64,000 bases of DNA, from positions 11,929 to 75,928 of the forward strand of contig DATJTT010000019.1 of NCBI GenBank assembly GCA_035503075.1, written 5' to 3'. Made by a program: the position numbers and the translations under genes. Source of the stretch: Solirubrobacteraceae bacterium (GTDB lineage: Bacteria; Actinomycetota; Thermoleophilia; Solirubrobacterales; Solirubrobacteraceae). A model generated the notes under the pieces. It saw nothing but the letters and a program-made list of their open reading frames with translations, was not told the DNA's origin and searched no databases. This document shows, piece after piece, positions 47,283-56,352 of this stretch. How positions within the stretch are numbered: the stretch's first letter is position 1; every line of letters begins with the position of its first letter.

Positions 47283-47343
47283 GCGCGCCGGCTGATCATG
47301 CAGCCCAGGTGTCGATCGACGAGGCACCGCGGTGGAATGGAGA

Positions 47344-47610
47344 TCAGTCGAGATTTTCGAGAATCTCGGTAGCGCGCGACCACTGGCTGGGCGCCACGAC
47401 GAGGTAGATGTCACCGCGCCCGTCCCGGTCCAACGGGTGATCAGCGACGCACCCCGCGTCAATCCCGAGCGCTCGCAACTGGTCACGCCATGCCACAGCT
47501 GTGCTCTGGTCCTCGAAGGTGCTGACGGTCTCCCAGCCCTCGAAGCACGGACCGTCGATCGCCACCGGAGGTTCACTAGCGGCGCCAGCCGATCGGCGGA
47601 AAAGACGCAT
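47344..47610 (-). CDS. small hypothetical protein (DUF2007-like)
   Basis: WETVSTFEDQSTA...L.ALGIDA...IYLVV......ATEIL; family call tentative. Confidence 0.55.
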   Translation of the reverse strand: MRLFRRSAGAASEPPVAIDGPCFEGWETVSTFEDQSTAVAWRDQLRALGIDAGCVADHPLDRDGRGDIYLVVAPSQWSRATEILENLD

Positions 47611-47744
47611 GACATCAGCGTACCGTGCGTGTCGCCTGCTCGCTGGACGTTCGTCGGAGATCGCGCGCGACCCTAAAGCACGCTCGCGCGTAACCCGATT
47701 GGGGAGTGCGGCTAGCTCCGCCACTCACGGAGAGCCGGGCCGCT

Positions 47745-47820
47745 AGTGGAAAAAGGCACACCTGCCGCGAGGCGGGCTCGCAAAGCCAGGGGTCTCTCGC
47801 AGATCGCCCAGCTGCCCGGC
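47745..47820 (+). ncRNA. c-di-GMP-I (GEMM-I) class riboswitch
   Basis: GGCACACC / TGCC-GCGA-GGCG GNRA stem / GG / CGCAAAGCC / GGG-GTCT..AGAT-CG-CCC / GCTGCC mirrors known GEMM-I aptamers; P1 is only about 3 bp. Confidence 0.82.
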
Positions 47821-47854
47821 AAGTTCATGAGTCTACACAAGGAGCTTTGCCGTT

Positions 47855-48322
47855 ATGTTTCACTTTTTCCAATCGAGAAAGGGGCGCCTGGCGTTCGGCC
47901 TCGGCGTCTGCCTCATCCTCGCGGCAGTTAGCGCGGTCGCGATCGCTTTCTGGACGGGCGCCGGCGAAGGGACGGGCACCGTCAAGGTCAACCACACCAG
48001 CCCTTCCCTCGAAGTGAGCGGTAGCCAAGCCGAAAACCTGTATCCGGGCGGCAGCGCCGCGATCACGGTTAAGGTCAAGAACACCGACGCCGGCGCGAAC
48101 GGCTACCTGGGCAGGCTGGAAGCGGAAGTCACGGGAACCTCGGCGGCGGAATGCAAAAGCCAGTGGTTCGAAGTCACGCCTGCGTCGCAGGAACCGGCCA
48201 CCGTGCTGGCGCCCGGCGAAACCAAGGAATACTCGGTGAGCCTGAAGATGAAAGAAGAAGCCAGCGTCAACCAGAATGCCTGCAAGGGCGCCACGGTCAC
48301 GATCCACTACACGGCCTCCTAG
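47855..48322 (+). CDS. secreted TasA/camelysin-like fibre subunit (candidate major pilin)
   Basis: Signal ending AIA|FWTGAGEG; NLYPGG...VKNT; C-terminal NQNACKGATVTI resembles TasA-family NL.PG and QN..QG motifs; Cys pair. Confidence 0.65.
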   Translation: MFHFFQSRKGRLAFGLGVCLILAAVSAVAIAFWTGAGEGTGTVKVNHTSPSLEVSGSQAENLYPGGSAAITVKVKNTDAGANGYLGRLEAEVTGTSAAECKSQWFEVTPASQEPATVLAPGETKEYSVSLKMKEEASVNQNACKGATVTIHYTAS

Positions 48323-48349
48323 CCCGGCTGGCCAGGCCGACCGGCTGGG
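48323..48349 (+). terminator. stem-loop between pilin and adhesin genes
   Basis: CCCGGCTGG / CCGGCTGGG, 9 bp with two GU pairs, immediately after the stop. Confidence 0.45.
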
Positions 48350-48371
48350 GTTGCAGAGAAAGGCGACGGCG

Positions 48372-50762
48372 ATGATCAGGCTCAAGCGAATCGCGGTTGC
48401 GACCGCCATTGCGTTGGGCCTGATCGCCCCAGGCGCACACGCGTACTGGTCGGGCAGCGGCGAAGGGAGCGGATCGGCGAGTCTCGCGACGCTCTCGCCG
48501 CCGGCGATCACGAGCGTGACACCGGGCGCTGACACGGTCGAACTGGAATGGTCGCCGGTCACGCCGCCCGGCCCCGGCGTCGTCGAGTACTACGTCACGC
48601 GCGATGGCGGCGCTCCGGGCAGCGGCTGCCCGGGCTCAAGCTCGCCTTCGACGACGACCCGCTGCACCGACACGGGCGTGTCGATCGGCACGCACCAATA
48701 CACCGTCACAGCCGTGTGGCGCAGCTGGACGGCGGAGAGCACAACCAGCACGGTGAGCGTCACATTCGGCGCCGCCACGCACTTCCAAGTAGAAGCCGCG
48801 AGCTCCACGCCCACCGCAGGCGAAGCGGATGACCTCACGATCACCGCCAAGGACGCTGCCGAGAACACAGACGCCAGCTACTCGGGCACGCACAGCCTGA
48901 TCTTCGAAGGCCCCTCCGAAGCGCCCAACGCCACCAAGCCGGTCGTGATCGACCAAGCGGGCGTCGCAAGCAAGCTCGGCCAAGCGACTCCGATCACCTT
49001 CAGCGAAGGCAAGGCGACGGTATCCGGATCGGCCAACGGAGCGCTGAAGCTCTACGACGCGCAGACCACCTCGCTGCAGGTCAAGGAAGGCAGCATCGAA
49101 GGCGCCTCGGGCTCCCTGACGGTCAAAGCGGGCACGGCCAGACGCTTGAGCGTGCCAACGCCAAGCGAACGCGAAGCGGGCGCCGCCTTCAACCTGACGC
49201 TCACCGCACTCGATGAATGGGGCAACGTCGCAACCGGCTACGCGGGCGCAAAGGCGCTCGCATTCAGCGAACCTGCCGACTCGCCCAGCGGCAAGGCGCC
49301 GAGCTATCCGGCGAGCGTCACGTTCACCGCGGGCGTCGGCACCGCCTCCTCGATCAAGCTGTACGACGCCCAGACCACGACGCTCGAGGCCAGCGAAGGC
49401 GCCATCGAAGGCGTCTCGGGCTCGTTCCTCGTCAAGGCGGGGCCGTCCAAGAAATTGAGCGTCACGACGCCAAGCGAACAGGAAGCTGGCGCCGCCTTCA
49501 ACGTCGCGCTCACGGCGATCGACGAATGGGGCAACACCGCCAAGACGTACACGGGGGCAAGGACGCTCACCTGGAGCGGCCCGTCGAGCTCCCCCAGCGG
49601 TCAGGCACCCGAATATCCCGCCTCGGCCACCACGGTGAGCTTCAGCGAAGGCGCGGCAACGGCCTCCGCGATCAAGCTGTATGACGCCCAGAGCACGACA
49701 CTCAAGGCCAAGGAAGGCAGCATCGAAGGGATCTCGGGCTCCTTTACCGTCAAGGCCGCGGCGCCGGCCAGCCTGAGCGTCTCGACCCCGTCCGAACCGA
49801 CCGCGGGCGCCGCCTTCAACGAGACCGTGACTGCCTTGGACGCCTGGCACAACGCGGCCAAGACCTATACCGGCGCAAGGACGCTCACGTGGAGCGGCCC
49901 GTCGAGCTCTCCCAGCGGTCAGGCACCCGAATATCCCTCCTCGGCCACCACGGTGAGCTTCAGCGAAGGCGCGGGCACCGCCTCCGCGATCAAGCTGTAT
50001 GCCGCTCAGACCACGGCGCTCAAAGTGAACGAAGGCTCGCTCTCGGGCACGTCCGGCTCCTTCGCCGTCAAGGCGGGCACGACCACCGACTTCACCATGC
50101 CGACGCCAGCCGAACAGCAGGCGGGCGTCGCCTTCAGCGTGACGCTCACGGCAACCGACGAATGGGGCAACCTCGCAAAGACCTACGCCGGTTCGAAGAA
50201 ACTGACCTTCAGCGAACCATCCGACTCCCCCGACGGGCAGGCGCCAAGCTACCCGGCTGCTGTCACGTTCAGCGAAGGCGTGGGCACGGCCTCGGCGATC
50301 AAGCTCTATGACGCACAAAACACGCAACTGAAGGTCAAGCTGAACACGGTCGAAGGCAGCTCGGGCTCCTTCACCGTGGATGCGGGCGCTGCCGAACACC
50401 TCGCTTGGTCACAGCCAGAAGTGACCAGCGGCGGCTTTAAATCAGGGAGCTCTCCGTTTGATTGCACGACCACCAGCATTGGCCACGGCGCCTTGTTCAA
50501 GGCCCGCGTGAGCGTTACCGATGCCTACGGGAACATCGTCAGCAACCTGGGCGCGACGATCACGGCGAAGGTGGAAAAGGCAAGCGGCGGCGGCACGCTG
50601 GCCAACTCTCGCGGCCTCACGATCCCCGCGTCCGGTCCGGCGGAATCCTCGGCGAGCTTCGAATACACGAGCCCTACGTCGGGCTCGAGCGAAGCGGTGC
50701 TGGCGCTCACCGGCGAAACGGGCACGGCCTATACCGAAGCAGAAGCGCACATTAAATACTAG
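48372..50762 (+). CDS. large secreted FN3/Ig-like repeat protein (candidate adhesin / minor fibre subunit)
   Basis: Signal AHA|YWSGSGEG; FN3-like domain with a Cys pair; five repeats of about 105 aa with D.WGN motif; no LPXTG or TM anchor. Confidence 0.75.
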   Translation: MIRLKRIAVATAIALGLIAPGAHAYWSGSGEGSGSASLATLSPPAITSVTPGADTVELEWSPVTPPGPGVVEYYVTRDGGAPGSGCPGSSSPSTTTRCTDTGVSIGTHQYTVTAVWRSWTAESTTSTVSVTFGAATHFQVEAASSTPTAGEADDLTITAKDAAENTDASYSGTHSLIFEGPSEAPNATKPVVIDQAGVASKLGQATPITFSEGKATVSGSANGALKLYDAQTTSLQVKEGSIEGASGSLTVKAGTARRLSVPTPSEREAGAAFNLTLTALDEWGNVATGYAGAKALAFSEPADSPSGKAPSYPASVTFTAGVGTASSIKLYDAQTTTLEASEGAIEGVSGSFLVKAGPSKKLSVTTPSEQEAGAAFNVALTAIDEWGNTAKTYTGARTLTWSGPSSSPSGQAPEYPASATTVSFSEGAATASAIKLYDAQSTTLKAKEGSIEGISGSFTVKAAAPASLSVSTPSEPTAGAAFNETVTALDAWHNAAKTYTGARTLTWSGPSSSPSGQAPEYPSSATTVSFSEGAGTASAIKLYAAQTTALKVNEGSLSGTSGSFAVKAGTTTDFTMPTPAEQQAGVAFSVTLTATDEWGNLAKTYAGSKKLTFSEPSDSPDGQAPSYPAAVTFSEGVGTASAIKLYDAQNTQLKVKLNTVEGSSGSFTVDAGAAEHLAWSQPEVTSGGFKSGSSPFDCTTTSIGHGALFKARVSVTDAYGNIVSNLGATITAKVEKASGGGTLANSRGLTIPASGPAESSASFEYTSPTSGSSEAVLALTGETGTAYTEAEAHIKY

Positions 50763-50967
50763 GCGATCAAAACCGAGCCGCTTCTCCTCGGCGTCTCCAC
50801 CGCGCAGCCGGTGGGCGGTCCGGAGCTTCTCGAGCCGCTGGCCCGTCGTGTTCGTTTCAAGGCCTGGCGCGGGGCTGCCGATGATCAATGGGTCAGGCTA
50901 TCCCGGTGATGCCGATACAGCTATGTCCTGTTTGGGAATGCGGAATCCGATGAGGAGATCTCAGGCG

Positions 50968-52299
50968 ATGAAAGGTCTGTTTGACCCTGCTGACCCCGGG
51001 CCGGTTGGGCTGGACCGGGTCGTTGCGCTGGCCCAGCGCCATCTCGGACTCGACGTCGTCTTCGTCGCCGAGCTGACGGGCGCCGGGCAGGTCTATCGCG
51101 CGGCCGCCGGAGACGTGGCGTCGTTCAATATCGTGGTCGATGGTCCGGCCTGCGACGCCGCGTTCTCTCGAAGACTGGTGGCAGGCGAGGTGCCGAGCTT
51201 CATCGGCGACACGGCAACCGAGTGCGTCGGTGGGCTGCCGGGTGCTTGCGAAGCGCACGTGGGCTCGGTCATCGGTGTCCCGTTGCGACTTTCAGGCGGG
51301 ACGCCATATGGAGTTCTCTGCGGCTTCAGCCACGCGGCGGACAGTACCCTCGACGAGCGCGACGTCGGCTTCATGTCGATGCTCGGCGAGCTCATTGCCT
51401 ACGATCTAGACGGGAGACGCAGCGAGGAGCTGATCCGGGAAGACATCCTGCGGTTGATCGAGAACGAGAGCGTCCAGGTGACGCAGAACATCGAGATCGC
51501 CTACCAGCCGATCATCGATCTGCTTCGCGGGCACTGTCTGGGGATCGAGGCGCTCGCCCGATTTCCGGAGCCATTTGCCGGGCCTGATGTCACGCTCGCC
51601 GCCGCGAGGACGGTGGGCCTTGCTCTGGAACTTGAACGCCTGCTGATCGTTCAGGCCTGGAAGATGATCGCGTTGCTCGGCCCGGGGCAGTTTTTGGCGC
51701 TGAACGTGTCCCCGGAAGCGTTGGTGGAGCTCGCTCGTCGCGCGAACCTCCGCGAGGATCTCCCACTGAGCCAGCTCGTCGTGGAGGTCACCGAGCACCA
51801 AGTGGTCGAGAGCTACGCCGCTCTCCACAGCGAGCTCGCGCCGCTGCGCGAGCGGGGATTGCGTATCGCGGTCGATGACGCGGGCGCTGGGTACGCGTCG
51901 CTGCGCCATGTGCTGGAGCTGCGACCGGACTTCATCAAGGTCGATCGCTGGCTAATAGACGGAATCGCCGACGATCACGCCCGGCGCGTCGCCGTCGGCG
52001 CGTTCCTGTCGCTCGCCTTGGATCTCGGGTCCAGCGTCGTCGCCGAGGGAGTCGAGCGCCCAGCCGACCTTGCCGCCGTCCGTAGCCTCGGGCTCCATGC
52101 GGCGCAGGGATACTTGCTCGGCAGGCCAACCACCAGCCAGGCTGCCCTGTCCCAATGGATCGGCCCCTCGCCGGCTGCACAGGGGCATGCGCCGCTGGCA
52201 GCGCGGAACGGGCTTGCGCGGACCCGGAAGACCGCGGCCAGGCCCAATACCGCGGCTAGGCCGGCCACGCCGCGCAAGAGGCCCGCTACGCCTTCCTAG
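50968..52299 (+). CDS. GAF-EAL c-di-GMP phosphodiesterase
   Basis: GAF (IGVPL...YGVLCG); AYQPI, EALARF, EVTE, DDAGAGY, IKVD, EGVE, QGY intact; GAGGAG before ATG 50968. Confidence 0.9.
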   Translation: MKGLFDPADPGPVGLDRVVALAQRHLGLDVVFVAELTGAGQVYRAAAGDVASFNIVVDGPACDAAFSRRLVAGEVPSFIGDTATECVGGLPGACEAHVGSVIGVPLRLSGGTPYGVLCGFSHAADSTLDERDVGFMSMLGELIAYDLDGRRSEELIREDILRLIENESVQVTQNIEIAYQPIIDLLRGHCLGIEALARFPEPFAGPDVTLAAARTVGLALELERLLIVQAWKMIALLGPGQFLALNVSPEALVELARRANLREDLPLSQLVVEVTEHQVVESYAALHSELAPLRERGLRIAVDDAGAGYASLRHVLELRPDFIKVDRWLIDGIADDHARRVAVGAFLSLALDLGSSVVAEGVERPADLAAVRSLGLHAAQGYLLGRPTTSQAALSQWIGPSPAAQGHAPLAARNGLARTRKTAARPNTAARPATPRKRPATPS

Positions 52300-54127
52300 G
52301 GCCCGGCGCGGTCTTTCGGGTTTTGCTTCGCGTCACACGCAGCGGCGACGCCAGCCCCTCACGCCGCAAGCCCGGCGCTCGTGCGGCTCGGTTGCGCCCC
52401 GGCTGGCCACGCTGGAAGCTGGTCGCCTCGGAGTCGAGGACGGGCAGGCCGCGCCCTTGCTTCTTGGACCTGTACATCGCCCCATCGGCGCGCTTGACGA
52501 TCTCCTCGGCCGTCATCGCCCCGACCCGTGCGCATGCTACCCCGACGCTCGCACGCACTTCGACGGGATCGTTGGAGAGCGCGAATGCCGTGCTCAGCGA
52601 CGCGCATATCCGGTGTGCGACCTGGATGGCGACCTCGGGCCCGGGGACATCCCGCAAGAGAACGAGGAACTCGTCGCCACCGAGGCGCCCGACGTGGTCC
52701 TCGCCTCGACTTGCGATCTTCAGACGCTCGGCCACAAGCACCAGCAGCTCATCGCCGGCGGCGTGGCCGAGGTTGTCGTTGACGGGCTTGAACTCGTCGA
52801 GGTCGATATAGATGACCGCGGTCATCGTCGAGCCGTCTCCTTCGAGCTCTCGTCGTACCGCAGCCAGGGTCGCTGCACGATTGTAAACACCGGTGAGGGC
52901 GTCAAATGTGGCGCGCCTCTCGAGCTCGAGGCGCGCTCGCGCGCTGTCTGTGACGTCGAGCACAGATGTGATCGCCCCGCTTACCCCGCCGCTCGGGCGC
53001 ATCAGCCTGCGGATGCTCATGAGCGCCGATCGCCGCTCTCCAGACGGCAGCACGAAATCGACCTCGACGTCTTGATCGACGCCCTCATCGAGCACCCGGT
53101 CGAGCGCCGTCTCGAACGTCGCCATAGCATCTCGTGTCAGAGTCCCAAGCAGGGTCGCTACCTCCGGTGCCACGCTTGGCTTGTGACCGTCGGAAGCCGG
53201 CGATGGCCCGTCGACGCGCGAGCTCACGTAACCCGAGCCACGGAGGATGTCCAGCAGACGGGCATTGTGGTATACGACGTTGCGGTTGGTGTCGAGTTGG
53301 AAAAGCCCCTCCGGCATTCCGTCGGTGAGGCGGCGTAGCAGCTCCTCTCGCTCCGCGAGCGCCTCCTGGGCCGCCATCTCGGCCGATACGTCGATTATCT
53401 CGACAAGCACGTGGTTGGAGTCCGCTTGGTTCAGGTAGTTGTGCAGCGTGCTGTCCACCCACATCCAACTCCCGTCCTTGCGCTTGTGGCGCCGACGCGT
53501 GTGCTGATCACGTCGAGTGGACAGCATCGTAAGCCAGCCCTCGATCACGCGCCCCTGGTCTTCCGGGTGGATCTGTTCGAGGATCGACTGGCCGATGAGC
53601 TCCTCGCGCGTATATCCGAACATCTGCGTGAACGCGTCGTCACATTCGAGAACGATGCCACCCTCATCCTCCATGAGCGTCGAGAACCGCGGCGCAGCGG
53701 GCGGCAGCTCCTGGTCGTCGTCGCACGGCTCAGCTGCGAGCTCGTTCGTAGGAATGATCACGCACAACAAAACGCCATGGATCTGACGGAGATCGAGGAA
53801 ATGCAGCGTCGCCCAGCGAGACGGCTTGTCCAGCATGCGCACCTCGCCCTTGGCCGCGCCGTCGTGTTTCGCGCGCTGCCAAAGATCGACGACCGTCGCG
53901 CGGTCGTCAGCGATGACGCCGTCGATCACCGCCCGTCCCTCGATCGCTGCCTGCCCCCACAGCGCCACGGCCCCGGGGATTGGGACGATCAAGCCATTGC
54001 TCGAAAGTCCGCAAACAAGCGCGTCGGGGTGCTCACGGAGCAACGCTTCCGCCGCCCGCTCGACCTGCAGGGTGGTCTGGTTGGCAAGCATTGGGTGTTG
54101 ATCGGGTTGGACGGTTGGGTTTGACAT
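52286..54127 (-). CDS. PAS/PAC-GGDEF diguanylate cyclase
   Basis: PAS domains; DALTGVYNR, DLDEFKPVND..GH..GD, I-site RGED, GGDEF intact. Confidence 0.92.
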   Translation of the reverse strand: MSNPTVQPDQHPMLANQTTLQVERAAEALLREHPDALVCGLSSNGLIVPIPGAVALWGQAAIEGRAVIDGVIADDRATVVDLWQRAKHDGAAKGEVRMLDKPSRWATLHFLDLRQIHGVLLCVIIPTNELAAEPCDDDQELPPAAPRFSTLMEDEGGIVLECDDAFTQMFGYTREELIGQSILEQIHPEDQGRVIEGWLTMLSTRRDQHTRRRHKRKDGSWMWVDSTLHNYLNQADSNHVLVEIIDVSAEMAAQEALAEREELLRRLTDGMPEGLFQLDTNRNVVYHNARLLDILRGSGYVSSRVDGPSPASDGHKPSVAPEVATLLGTLTRDAMATFETALDRVLDEGVDQDVEVDFVLPSGERRSALMSIRRLMRPSGGVSGAITSVLDVTDSARARLELERRATFDALTGVYNRAATLAAVRRELEGDGSTMTAVIYIDLDEFKPVNDNLGHAAGDELLVLVAERLKIASRGEDHVGRLGGDEFLVLLRDVPGPEVAIQVAHRICASLSTAFALSNDPVEVRASVGVACARVGAMTAEEIVKRADGAMYRSKKQGRGLPVLDSEATSFQRGQPGRNRAARAPGLRREGLASPLRVTRSKTRKTAPGPRKA

Positions 54128-54289
54128 TAGTCCGGTCGCGCCAGCGCTGCTTAAAACCGCACGCTAGGAGCACCCGCCCGCAGGATCGACCGCGAGCGGG
54201 TCACTCGTAAAGCCAACGGCCGGACTATGGACAAGTGGGCAGCGAGCCGTTCCGCGACGAAAGATCGAGCATGACGCTCGTTTGGCGTG

Positions 54290-54476
54290 GGCTGGCGCGG
54301 CCAGTCGGGATAGGGTCCGGTCTTGAGGTCGTCGAGCAGGCTCGGGTGGTGGGCTCGCAGCCGAACCGTTCGCGCGTCAGGGCGCCGAAGACCGGCTGGT
54401 CGGTGGCGAAGATCATGCCGAGCACGCCGAAGCTCTCGGGCGTGGCCGCGCCGCCGCGCGAGGTCTTGATCCTCAT
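54290..54476 (-). pseudogene. unidentified degenerate gene fragment
   Basis: Codon-biased stretch MRIKTSRGGAATPESFGVLGMIFATDQPVFGALTRERF; continues after a frameshift as HPSLLDDLKTGPYPDWP. Confidence 0.3.
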
Positions 54477-54641
54477 GGGTGTCGAGGCATGTGGCGCAGG
54501 CCCGTTTGAAGGCGAGCGCGCCGAGCTCACGCGGTCCACGGCCGGCTGGCGCTCCCGGTGTTTGATGCGCCCCCAACCGGGTAGGGGACGCGGAGTGAGC
54601 AGCAACGGGGAGACGCTTCGGCGTCGATGGAGGGAGTCTGG

Positions 54642-55580
54642 ATGCTGAAGGTCAAGATGCTTCTCGCTGGCGTCAGCGCTGTCACGGTTCTGCTCCTCGC
54701 GGCGCCGACGGGCGCGAGCGCCGCGTATCACGTGCCCTACGGCACCGAAGCGCTCGCGGCGTTCACCGCTGGCGAGACGCTCACGCCCACGACCGTCGTG
54801 GGCGCGAACGACGGCTGCAAGCCGAGCGCCGAACACCCCTACCCGGTCGTGCTCGTGCACGGCACGATCGAGAACGAGGGCTCGAACTGGATCACGCTCG
54901 CGCCGCTGCTTGCGAACGACGGCTACTGCGTTTACGCGTTGAACTACGGCGAAACGCCGCTCTCTGCGGGCCGCCTCGACGGTCTGGGCGAAATCCCACA
55001 CTCGGCGGAAGAACTCGGCGCTTTCGTGACCAAGGTACTCGCGCAGACCGGCGCGTCGAAGGTCGACATCGTCGGGCACTCGCAGGGCGGCATGATGCCC
55101 AACTACTACATCCACTTCCTCGGCGGCGCCCCGAAGGTGCACGAGCTCGTCGGGCTCGCGCCGAGCAACCACGGCACGACGGTCGAGGGGATCGCCGCAC
55201 TGCTGCGCGCGGTACCGGGCGTACCGGCGACTACGCTCACGCTGCTCGAACTGCTCGGCGCCCCTTCGCTGTCCGAACAGCTGATCGGCTCGGCGTTCAT
55301 GGCGAAGCTCTTCGGATCGGGCGAACCGCTCTCGCCGCAAGTTCGATACGTCGTGATCGAGACGACACACGACGAGGTCGTCACGCCGTACACGAATGCG
55401 TTCCTGCACGGCGCGAACGTCACGAACATCACGATCCAGGAACAGTGCCCCGAAGACCCGACCGGGCACATCGGCATGGATTGGGACTCGCCCGCGCTCC
55501 AGAACGTGCTGAACCAGCTCAGCCACAGCCCGGTCGCCGGGTTTCACGCGACGTGCGAAAACTTCGGGGCGAGTATCTAG
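54642..55580 (+). CDS. secreted lipase/esterase (class 2, alpha/beta hydrolase)
   Basis: Signal peptide; HPYPVVLVHGT, GHSQGG, HDEVVTPY, late His in TGHIG. Confidence 0.9.
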   Translation: MLKVKMLLAGVSAVTVLLLAAPTGASAAYHVPYGTEALAAFTAGETLTPTTVVGANDGCKPSAEHPYPVVLVHGTIENEGSNWITLAPLLANDGYCVYALNYGETPLSAGRLDGLGEIPHSAEELGAFVTKVLAQTGASKVDIVGHSQGGMMPNYYIHFLGGAPKVHELVGLAPSNHGTTVEGIAALLRAVPGVPATTLTLLELLGAPSLSEQLIGSAFMAKLFGSGEPLSPQVRYVVIETTHDEVVTPYTNAFLHGANVTNITIQEQCPEDPTGHIGMDWDSPALQNVLNQLSHSPVAGFHATCENFGASI

Positions 55581-55708
55581 CGCGCTCGCACGGGACGCGC
55601 GTGTCGGAGCAGATCGGCTCGGGCGGGACGAGCAGCCATCGAGAGCCCTCGCGATCGACACGCGGTCACGGATCTGGCGCAGCGGAGACGAATAGTAGGA
55701 TCGCGGAC

Positions 55709-56110
55709 GTGCCGTTCACGCTCAGGAACCTCAAGGAGGATCTGGAGGATCTCGGGTCCAACTTCGACGGCGCGCCGGACCTGGAGTTTCGCCACGCAAG
55801 CACGGCGCTCGAGCTCGAGCGGTGCGGGCTTTGCTACCAGCGCATCCCGCCCGGCTATCGCTTTCCATACGGCCACACGCATAAGGAACAGGAGGAGATC
55901 TACGTGGTCGTGCGCGGGAGCGGGCGGATGAAGCTCGACGACGAGCTCGTCGAGGTCAAAGAGTGGGACGTGGTTCGCGTCCCGCCCGGCACGTGGCGGG
56001 GCTACGAGGGCGGGCCGGAGGGCGTCGAGATCCTCGTCTTCGGTGCGCCCAGCCTCGGCGAGAAGCAGCGCGAGGACGTGGAAGGTCAGCGCGACTGGTG
56101 GGCTGACTAG
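55709..56110 (+). CDS. cupin domain protein
   Basis: GHTHKEQEEIYVVVRGSG, VRVPPGTWR. Confidence 0.85.
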   Translation: MPFTLRNLKEDLEDLGSNFDGAPDLEFRHASTALELERCGLCYQRIPPGYRFPYGHTHKEQEEIYVVVRGSGRMKLDDELVEVKEWDVVRVPPGTWRGYEGGPEGVEILVFGAPSLGEKQREDVEGQRDWWAD

Positions 56111-56239
56111 CGCCCGGTCGGGATCTCGCACGCGCCGGTGCTGCACGACGAGGACTGACTGAAACGCGACCTGCTCTGTTGACGCGACGAGCACCTCGAG
56201 CGCTCTCCGGCTCGAGTCTCGAAAAGCGCTGACAGGAGG

Positions 56240-56352
56240 GACACGGTAGACGTGTAGCGCCGCGCCGATGGGGTATGTCTGCGCGTCTACGAGCTCGAGC
56301 CGCAGCGGTGCGGTGAGAGCCTTGAACAGGGGCAACCCCTGCCCCAGCGCGA
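56240..56352 (-). pseudogene. RibD-C/dihydrofolate-reductase-family C-terminal remnant
   Basis: [37 protein letters not shown] begins right at the ALDH stop. Confidence 0.7.

Follow-up and report, generated by a model that had tools for sequence, protein, structure and literature searches.

The aptamer and the operon it precedes

The stretch of DNA analysed here, called the window throughout, is 64 kb in length (contig DATJTT010000019.1, positions 11,929 to 75,928) and belongs to a Solirubrobacteraceae bacterium from a wetland metagenome. It has a GC content of 70%, and its nearest genome relatives are uncultured Solirubrobacterales. The subject of the present study is the 5' untranslated region (UTR) of a two-gene operon in the window, in which an aptamer of the c-di-GMP-I (cyclic di-GMP) family is located. 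The first gene of the operon (47855-48322, + strand) encodes a protein of 155 amino acids in which a hydrophobic helix at the N-terminus and the motif AFWTGAGEG are combined with a predicted beta-sandwich domain. The second gene (48372-50762, + strand) encodes a secreted protein of 796 amino acids with repeats of about 95 residues, and carries AYWSGSGEG after the signal segment. All the leader features discussed below lie on the + strand, and they include a promoter-like motif, a hairpin named H1, the aptamer, a linker and the ribosome binding site (RBS). It is proposed that the leader could be acting as a four-segment relay which switches the operon ON with c-di-GMP, a reading that we hold to be somewhat better than an even bet.

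When cmscan was run over the whole length of the window, the sole riboswitch or structured RNA found was at 47746-47820, with the model matched along its whole length at 60.8 bits (E 7e-12). The match belongs to clan CL00126, the c-di-GMP-I family, with RF03167 (c-di-GMP-I-GGC, gathering score 59) as the top model; a second member of the clan, presumably RF01051, was also above its own gathering score and was hidden by clan competition. The GEMM-I (c-di-GMP-I) aptamer that had been proposed in an original prediction made from the letters of the sequence was thus confirmed, both by this score and by its canonical contact nucleotides. The aptamer consists of P1 (47746-49 with 47816-20), P2 with its base (GC 47756-57 with GC 47780-81), its stem (47761-66 with 47771-76) and the GNRA loop GCGA (47767-70) on top, and P3 (47784-94 and 47802-13). 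Of 45 orthologues, 42 have GCGA as the P2 loop and 3 have GTGA. In an alignment of 41 long-leader orthologues, which is the basis of all the pairing counts that follow, P2 was paired in 100% of the sequences with compensatory changes from G-C to A-U (one pair is GC in 36, GU in 3 and AU in 2 sequences; another is UG in 24, CG in 15 and UA in 2), and P3 was mostly invariant. Since the aptamer is very conserved, the support from compensatory changes for P2 and P3 is modest. A C.A mismatch in P3 (47787/47810) is kept in all 41 aligned orthologues, while the family consensus has a C-G pair at this place.

Alignment to the model places G at 47755 (G20 of the Vc2 riboswitch), A at 47782 (A47, the intercalating base) and C at 47815 (C92); the G and the C had been assigned correctly in the original prediction. 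A47 is reportedly one of the nucleotides which contact the ligand. Judged by its sequence, the element is a true c-di-GMP-I riboswitch, a member of a known family, with the canonical pocket G20/A47/C92. It has been shown that the guanines of the ligand are recognised by G20 (G-alpha) and through pairing with C92 (G-beta), and that wild-type Vc2 binds c-di-GMP at picomolar affinity and cyclic GMP-AMP (cGAMP) at ~10 uM, with the G20A change making it bispecific for both (PMC6140456). The nucleotides of the pocket favour c-di-GMP over 3',3'-cGAMP, as had been argued earlier, and we infer c-di-GMP as the ligand from them. The distance from the 3' end of the aptamer to the ATG is 34 nt, a cis-regulatory position in the 5' UTR. 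An intrinsic terminator was looked for between the aptamer and the ATG and none was found, so translational control is the likely mode of regulation.

The same aptamer, in the same position, precedes the orthologous gene in L001-L003, which are the closest genome orthologues, and in 14 of 17 loci from metagenomes (L004-L020); of the remaining three, L011 has a degenerate aptamer, and L004 and L018 are too short upstream. Extraction by regular expression over the window, L001-L020 and 44 further genome loci (L140-L183) gave 45 non-redundant aptamer-bearing leaders. Thus the aptamer precedes the orthologous two-gene cassette, coding for the 155-amino-acid protein and a secreted protein of ~800 amino acids, in 45 non-redundant loci of Solirubrobacterales. 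The 17-mer core of the aptamer is present in at least 119 genome contigs; among the first 80 of these listed, 48 were from Actinomycetota, of which 41 were Thermoleophilia/Solirubrobacterales. In 13 sampled loci, from metagenome-assembled genomes labelled Actinomycetes, Acidimicrobiia, Conexibacter and Thermoleophilia and with tandem pairs included, the aptamers were confirmed by cmscan. On these counts of sequence matches c-di-GMP-I riboswitches are common in Solirubrobacterales, and the suggestion that they are rare in Actinomycetota does not hold for this order.

Several variants of the arrangement were observed. Tandem c-di-GMP-I aptamers occur in L185 (1-226), L023 (2595-2775), L028 (4325-4502) and L061 (1435-1610); in L185, an orthologue with 73% identity, the second aptamer stands in place of the 5' anti-Shine-Dalgarno hairpin described below. 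L014 has a second aptamer in divergent orientation ~500 nt upstream (minus strand, 2303-2377). In L127/L179 the ATG lies 4 nt past the 3' strand of P1 (GCC CGAC ATG), with neither Shine-Dalgarno (SD) sequence nor linker, which is either a deletion variant with P1 abutting the start codon or an assembly artefact. In L011 (~290-380) there is a divergent aptamer-like element that has GCACCGC for GCAAAGCC and a remodelled P3, and it gave no Rfam match at E <=0.01.

Pairing of the leader with the ribosome site

The leader upstream of the aptamer folds into the hairpin H1 (47708-47743), which was identified by folding and covariation. Its outer stem is formed by GCGGC (47708-12) with GCCGC (47739-43) and its inner stem by CUCCG (47716-20) with CGGAG (47728-32). 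H1 contains an anti-SD sequence, AGCUCC (47714-19), as well as an SD-like decoy, GGAG, and at its 3' side an anti-aptamer segment, GCCGGGC (47734-47740), which is complementary to GCCCGGC (47814-47820), that is, to G91, C92 and the 3' strand of P1. The RBS region (47839-47857) is made up of the SD AAGGAG (47839-44), the post-SD sequence GCUUUGCCGU (47844-53) and the ATG (47855-57). Between the aptamer and the RBS lies the linker CGGCAAGUUC (47817-47826), which shares nucleotides with the 3' strand of P1 and whose pairing with GAGCUUUGCCG (47842-52) can give a local SD-masking hairpin; it is followed by UGAGU (47828-47832), the complement of the H1 loop ACUCA (47723-27).

H1 alone has a folding energy of -17.7 kcal/mol and is compatible with P1. 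However, the unconstrained minimum free energy (MFE) structure of most orthologues is not this arrangement; it is a long rod in which the SD is paired to the 5' leader. In the window the rod is built from the helices GCGGC (47708-12)/GCCGU (47849-53) and AGCUCC (47714-19)/GGAGCU (47841-46), and further inwards ACUCA (47723-27)/UGAGU (47828-32) and GCCGGGC (47734-40)/GCCCGGC (47814-20). The last of these, the anti-aptamer helix, buries C92 and the 3' strand of P1.

Both structures are reflected in the comparative data. The outer stem of H1 was paired in 88.6% and the inner stem in 90.5%, with compensatory changes in 3 of 5 and 2 of 5 pairs, respectively. For the leader and the ribosome site, the anti-SD:SD helix was paired in 90.5%, and the helix of the 5'-terminal segment with the post-SD sequence in 73% with compensatory changes at 3 of 5 pairs. 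Together the leader:RBS helices have 4 pairs with compensatory changes and the H1 stems have 5. Individual loci illustrate these changes: L006 has AACUCC with GGAGUU, and in L020 and L017 CUCC is lost and CACCU gained, while the inner stem CUCCG/CGGAG has become GCUUG/CAAGC. The loop and linker pair, too, is ACUCA/UGAGU in the window and UUCAC/GUGAA in most orthologues, a double change which keeps the pairing; the column count for UUCAC/GUGAA (47% paired) is unreliable, since the alignment has the window out of step by one register.

An alignment-free permutation test gave a similar picture. Its 17-sequence version of cognate against non-cognate partners was uninformative, whereas the 41-sequence version was informative. 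Here the cognate energy for the 5' segment with the RBS was -15.84 as compared to -14.69 +/- 0.26 for permuted partners, and for the 5' segment within H1 it was -20.20 as compared to -18.70 +/- 0.35; for either pairing, the energy of the cognate partners was attained in 0 of 2000 permutations. The linker with the RBS gave a marginal result (101 of 2000, p ~0.05). Pairing of the linker and RBS was seen in 79.8% of the orthologues, and the linker of L185, CGGCAAA, is a perfect complement of UUUGCCG. In the window the local linker/SD hairpin has -12.3 kcal/mol with P1 open, -6.8 when 47816-18 are held in P1 and -3.9 when 47816-20 are held. Taken together, the comparative data suggest that the ribosome site would be masked mainly by the 5' end of the mRNA itself.

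The 5' hairpin is also found apart from the aptamer. In four loci (L169, L170, L178 and L182, ~1400-1510) there are copies, paralogous or orthologous, of the gene for the 155-amino-acid protein which have the promoter motif and the 5' hairpin (GCGGAUCGAGCUCCGC) and neither aptamer nor SD, and the hairpin runs straight into AUCUGCGUUAUG. Some genomes carry both forms, e.g. L147 + L178.

A possible relay and the direction of the switch

On the basis of these pairings a relay of four segments can be proposed. Segment 1 would be the 5'-terminal GCGGC (47708-12) with the anti-SD AGCUCC (47714-19); segment 2 the 3' arm of H1, that is CGGAG (47728-32), GCCGGGC (47734-40) and GCCGC (47739-43); segment 3 the 3' strand of the aptamer with the linker, GCCCGGCAAGUUC...UGAGU (47814-32); and segment 4 the RBS GGAGCUUUGCCGU (47841-53). 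Without ligand, segment 3 would pair with segment 2, so that C92 and the 3' strand of P1 are buried and H1 is opened. The freed segment 1 would then pair with segment 4, and the SD would be locked in the long rod with translation off. When c-di-GMP is bound, P1 (47746-49/47816-20) would hold segment 3, and H1, formed by segments 1 and 2, would stay closed. The anti-SD would be occupied within H1, and the SD would be held by only a weak local hairpin with translation on.

The direction of such a switch was approached by folding. Prefix folding of the window transcript gave H1, P2 and P3 as the MFE structure up to 47813. Once 47814-20 are transcribed the anti-aptamer helix displaces the outer stem of H1 in the MFE; the inner stem gives way to the middle of the rod at 47833, the freed anti-SD captures the SD at 47846, and the 5' end pairs beside the ATG at 47853. 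This order would place the decision point at the competition between P1 and the anti-aptamer helix, which is where binding of the ligand acts. Over 29 orthologues the mean probability of the SD being unpaired was 0.07 in the free RNA and 0.23 with the aptamer constrained, and it went up in 17 and down in 1. The rise in SD accessibility, the weakening of the local hairpin when P1 is formed and the prefix folding together favour an ON switch, as far as modelling goes. The original prediction had also called for a translational ON platform, and in its direction it agrees with the modelling; its mechanism, in which the aptamer core pairs with the initiation region, did not turn out to be a conserved one, as discussed below.

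A number of observations weigh against the relay or its direction. In 15 of the 29 orthologues (e.g. L001, L014, L019 and L175) the MFE with the aptamer constrained keeps the SD on the 5' leader, and the gap between free and constrained MFE is 8-18 kcal/mol; equilibrium by itself would yield no clean ON state in these orthologues, and the switch would therefore have to be kinetic. Coupling of the segments is what we infer from mutually exclusive helices, and the link between segments 2 and 3 gave no signal in the permutation test (1231 of 2000). The anti-aptamer helix is paired in 95.8% of the 41 orthologues and is almost invariant, so that covariation is not informative for it. The shuffle and permutation tests ignore phylogenetic relatedness. 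GC-rich repeats of the CCGG type permit several registers, and RNAalifold prefers a closing helix of GCCG (47739-42) with CGGC (47817-20). The short-leader loci L010 and L012 and the tandem-aptamer locus L185 lack the H1 anti-SD hairpin, and the relay cannot therefore be universal. Finally, a promoter of the WhiG type, for which there is a candidate upstream of the leader, is expected to be active at low c-di-GMP (PMC8325347), and this mildly speaks for OFF, which it fits more simply.

The opposite direction is the alternative which survives best, although we consider it distinctly less probable, at something like one chance among several. According to it, H1 formed during transcription would persist without ligand as a kinetic trap which leaves the SD free, and the ligand would drive formation of the rod and masking of the SD. 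The route could be that the ligand-locked P1, extended by GCU (47742-44) with AGU (47822-24), sets the linker against H1 and nucleation takes place on its loop (ACUCA/UGAGU). This would agree with the 15 orthologues in which the SD stays on the 5' leader under the constraint, with the conserved complementarity of loop and linker, which is kept through the double change in the window, and with the shutting of a WhiG promoter by c-di-GMP-armed RsiG (PMC8325347). However, masking of the SD is most stable in a structure that depends on the anti-aptamer helix, and this helix and bound ligand exclude each other; in addition, the constrained aptamer raised SD accessibility in 17 orthologues and lowered it in 1. 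P1 weakens the local SD hairpin as well. An ON switch is hence preferred to it.

A target other than the initiation of translation, for example Rho-dependent termination or decay of the mRNA, with the pairing of 5' end and RBS mainly protecting the transcript, seems unlikely to us. In its favour, none of the predicted states leaves the 5'-terminal nucleotides unpaired, and the paralogous leaders without aptamer or SD (L169, L170, L178 and L182) keep the 5' hairpin and its complement beside the ATG. On the other hand, the conserved partner of the leader is the SD itself, the search for an intrinsic terminator was negative, and just 34 nt separate the aptamer from the ATG.

Equally doubtful is the platform of the original prediction, in which the core GCAAAGC (47780-86) of the ligand-free aptamer would mask initiation through GCTTTGC (47844-50) and the ligand would withdraw the core and turn translation ON. 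The sequence was read correctly, as GCAAAGC at 47780-47786 is the exact reverse complement of GCTTTGC at 47844-47850 and the latter does lie between the SD AAGGAG (47839-47844) and the ATG (47855). The duplex has -10.8 kcal/mol in the window with a z of -3.2 against shuffles, and GCTTTGCCG is retained in the closest relatives of the window (L184, L185, L004 and L172). Moreover, L185 is without the 5' anti-SD leader, and pairing by the core or the linker must act there. Against it, when the 28-nt RBS region was shuffled, 283 of 5000 shuffles (5.7%) still gave a complement of at least 7 nt to the aptamer, so that the heptamer match alone is only marginally beyond chance. A contiguous core:RBS complement of at least 7 nt was found in only 1 of the 45 leaders, which is the window, and one of at least 6 nt in 2; at this 6-nt threshold the linker has such a complement in 17 of the 45 and the 5' leader in 26. 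Of the two central pairs of the core helix, one forms in 6 and the other in 26 of the 41 aligned sequences, and the mean energy is -5.8 kcal/mol in the first 17 orthologues and -5.6 kcal/mol in the 41 long-leader orthologues. In the window itself the core loses to the linker (-14.2 kcal/mol) and to the 5' leader (-20.0 kcal/mol), and its pairing was absent from the MFE at every transcript length folded. The same 3' sequence is also complementary to the linker CGGCAAG, a match which is improved to CGGCAAA in L185. Because the aptamer core is invariant, covariation can neither support nor test this pairing. The heptamer complement is present in only 5 of ~49 orthologous leaders, which marks it as a sub-clade feature and as at most a minor, clade-specific part of the mechanism. 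Another long-range pairing, GGAAAAAGG (47748-56) with CUUUUUCC (47865-72), was present in the first MFE and was rejected; its U-run encodes the Phe-Phe of MFHFF/MFRFF and is absent where the N-terminus differs.

It remains to consider the ligand, since the best Rfam score is that of the GGC variant, a class with no settled ligand. The GGC in the name of the variant is said to stand for positions 20, 47 and 92. The sole strongly conserved difference between the two consensus sequences is GCGAAgC in RF03167 against GCAAAgC in RF01051, i.e. the A47 position. The window has GCAAAGC with A at 47782, and the RF03167 label was not accepted at face value, as the distinguishing G47 is absent. G at position 47 was seen in no orthologous aptamer found, in a set whose selection pattern itself fixed A47 and C93, the nucleotide after C92. 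The three closest genome orthologues were reported as RF01051 (44.9-48.1 bits, gathering score 35), and orthologues scored 45.7-62.2 bits on RF03167. In addition RF03167 outscored RF01051, at 61.4-73 bits, on eleven aptamers of ten other Actinomycetota loci (L097, L070, L045, L037, L098, L038, L023, L061, L028 and L072) that had been retrieved for containing GCAAAGCC, which has A at position 47. The model RF03167 includes P1 and RF01051 does not, and this is probably the reason why it wins on A47 sequences. The label is therefore not diagnostic of the ligand pocket, and the fact that many sequences with canonical A47 receive it calls for caution in inferring ligand class from Rfam.

C92 is C in 45 of 45 orthologues. 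Position 20 is G in 41 of 45, including the window (47755), and A, as in members of the cGAMP type, in four (L006, L014, L019 and L146). The A was also recorded for L014/L015 and L127/L179 and in the metatranscriptome contigs X14 and X15 (47755 G>A); these variants read GGAAAAGAGC or GGAAAAAAGC, and G and A toggle inside one orthologous leader family. G to A at this position is the change that yields bispecificity or cGAMP selectivity in GEMM-I RNAs (PMC6140456 for the bispecificity of Vc2 G20A). A ligand other than c-di-GMP, to which the better score of RF03167 and the A20 of four orthologues and of the contigs X14 and X15 could point, is most improbable for the window, as it has G20, A47 and C92 without the distinguishing nucleotide of the variant, the label is also won by many A47 sequences, and genes for EAL and GGDEF proteins adjoin.

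Promoter, neighbouring genes and relation to known systems

A WhiG/sigma-28-type promoter-like motif lies at 47674-47701, with the -35 element TAAA (47674-77), a spacer of 16 nt and the -10 element CCCGATTG (47694-701). The WhiG2 consensus is T(A/C)AA-N16-GCCGATAA with a conserved central CGA (PMC12871210), and TAAA-N16-CCCGATTG matches it with one mismatch, at the first base of the -10 element. TAAA-N15-17-CCGAT has a single match in the window, where 0.08 would be expected by chance. T[AC]AA-N15-17-N[CT]CGA is present in 42 of the 45 orthologous leaders, and its distance to the aptamer is fixed; in the N16 form, T[AC]AA-N16-GCCGA is exact in 15 of 45 and found with any first base in 25 of 45, its -10 end, where measured, lying 37-48 and mostly 41-44 nt before the aptamer. 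The operon is thus probably transcribed from a promoter of the WhiG/sigma-28 type. The motif predicts a start at ~47708-47711, so that the mRNA would open with GCGGC. The leader is also covered by metatranscriptome contigs from relatives (X3, X14 and X15), but as these begin inside it the 5' end is not mappable from them.

The motif is not confined to this operon. Of 116 aptamer instances in other genetic settings, 19 are preceded by it, where ~0.1-0.2 would be expected by chance. The loci concerned include L022, L042, L049, L081, L104, L078, L092, L103, L057, L058, L091, L106 and L132; the genes encode mostly proteins of 500-600 amino acids with signal-peptide-like N-termini, and the motif is 4-6, 12-13 or 61-63 nt from the aptamer. 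It is known that members of Thermoleophilia carry WhiG and a single-motif RsiG, and that c-di-GMP arms RsiG to sequester WhiG (PMC8325347). c-di-GMP may therefore act twice on the transcript, on initiation of transcription through RsiG-WhiG and on translation through the riboswitch. That one transcript is under such dual control, in an arrangement recurring across Solirubrobacterales before several unrelated secreted-protein genes, is put forward tentatively, and we would sooner bet against it than for it. A link between a WhiG promoter and a riboswitch is reported in none of the papers found. If the dual control is true and the riboswitch is ON, the promoter would be silenced through RsiG at high c-di-GMP while the high-affinity riboswitch would need bound ligand for translation, and the outcome would be a band-pass with expression at intermediate c-di-GMP only; if the promoter is real and the riboswitch is OFF, c-di-GMP would shut the operon off coherently.

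In every orthologous locus long enough to show it, the second gene follows the first. The first gene has a GC content at third codon positions (GC3) of 0.81 and 246 homologues, some of which are named 'SipW-like signal peptide' by JGI. In both proteins of the cassette A(F/Y)W(T/S)GxGEGxG comes right after the N-terminal hydrophobic helix, in a manner that resembles SipW-type signal peptides. Pfam and NCBIfam gave nothing for either protein beyond a sub-threshold CARDB match, and PDB sequence searches with both were empty. The AlphaFold model of the first protein is a beta-sandwich of low confidence, with a pLDDT (predicted local distance difference test) of 62, no significant fold match in the PDB and only generic beta-sandwich matches in Foldseek (E >0.01).

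Downstream of the cassette lie a gene for a GAF-EAL c-di-GMP phosphodiesterase (50881-52299, + strand; Pfam EAL 1.3e-46, GAF_2 4e-9) and, convergent with it, a gene for a PAS-PAS-GGDEF diguanylate cyclase (52286-54127, - strand; Pfam GGDEF 8e-39 and PAS). The start of the EAL gene is uncertain, with in-frame ATGs at 50881, 50923, 50938 and 50950. At least 119 nt separate the stop of the second gene from the first possible EAL start, and the EAL gene was not counted in the regulated unit; inclusion of the EAL and GGDEF genes was rejected also because they are not beside the cassette in L001-L003. The region 47300-56300, in which the cassette is accompanied by EAL, GGDEF, lipase-like and cupin genes, has 63-68% GC as compared to 70-76% in its flanks, and from this contrast it may be an acquired island.

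The riboswitch call as such is routine, as the element is found by Rfam and has a canonical pocket. What the present study adds is that the family is abundant in the mostly uncultured, deep-branching Solirubrobacterales, before genes for secreted proteins without assigned function, and that in this leader a translational riboswitch with the anti-SD at the 5' end of the mRNA can be put to the test. The promoter directly upstream suggests in addition that sensing of c-di-GMP by RNA and by protein could converge on one transcript.

With Vc2 and RF01051 the window element shares the three-helix fold of the aptamer, the GNRA loop of P2, G20/A47/C92 and a place in the 5' UTR before genes for surface or secreted proteins. 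It differs in its short P3 with the C.A mismatch, in its weak P1 of 3-4 bp, in a platform that is largely upstream of the aptamer and in its host, which belongs to a deep-branching actinobacterial order. RF03167 is the top-scoring model, contains P1 and has a similar GC-rich make-up, but its consensus is GCGAAgC, where the window and all the orthologues found have GCAAAGC. The 3',3'-cGAMP riboswitch (GEMM-Ib, Geobacter Gs1761) shares the fold, and four orthologues of the leader have A20 as it does, whereas the window has G20. The thiM TPP (thiamine pyrophosphate) riboswitch of E. coli works through mutually exclusive helices, by which the state of P1 decides whether an anti-SD masks or frees the SD. 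The proposed relay would likewise pass the state of P1 to an anti-SD through exclusive helices, but here the anti-SD lies ahead of the aptamer at the very 5' end, the whole leader forms a rod and the predicted direction is ON with ligand. To the RsiG-(c-di-GMP)-WhiG system the window is connected by its TAAA-N16-(G/C)CCGAT motif, which matches the WhiG2 consensus (PMC8325347, PMC12871210); that system, in contrast to a riboswitch, acts through proteins on the initiation of transcription.

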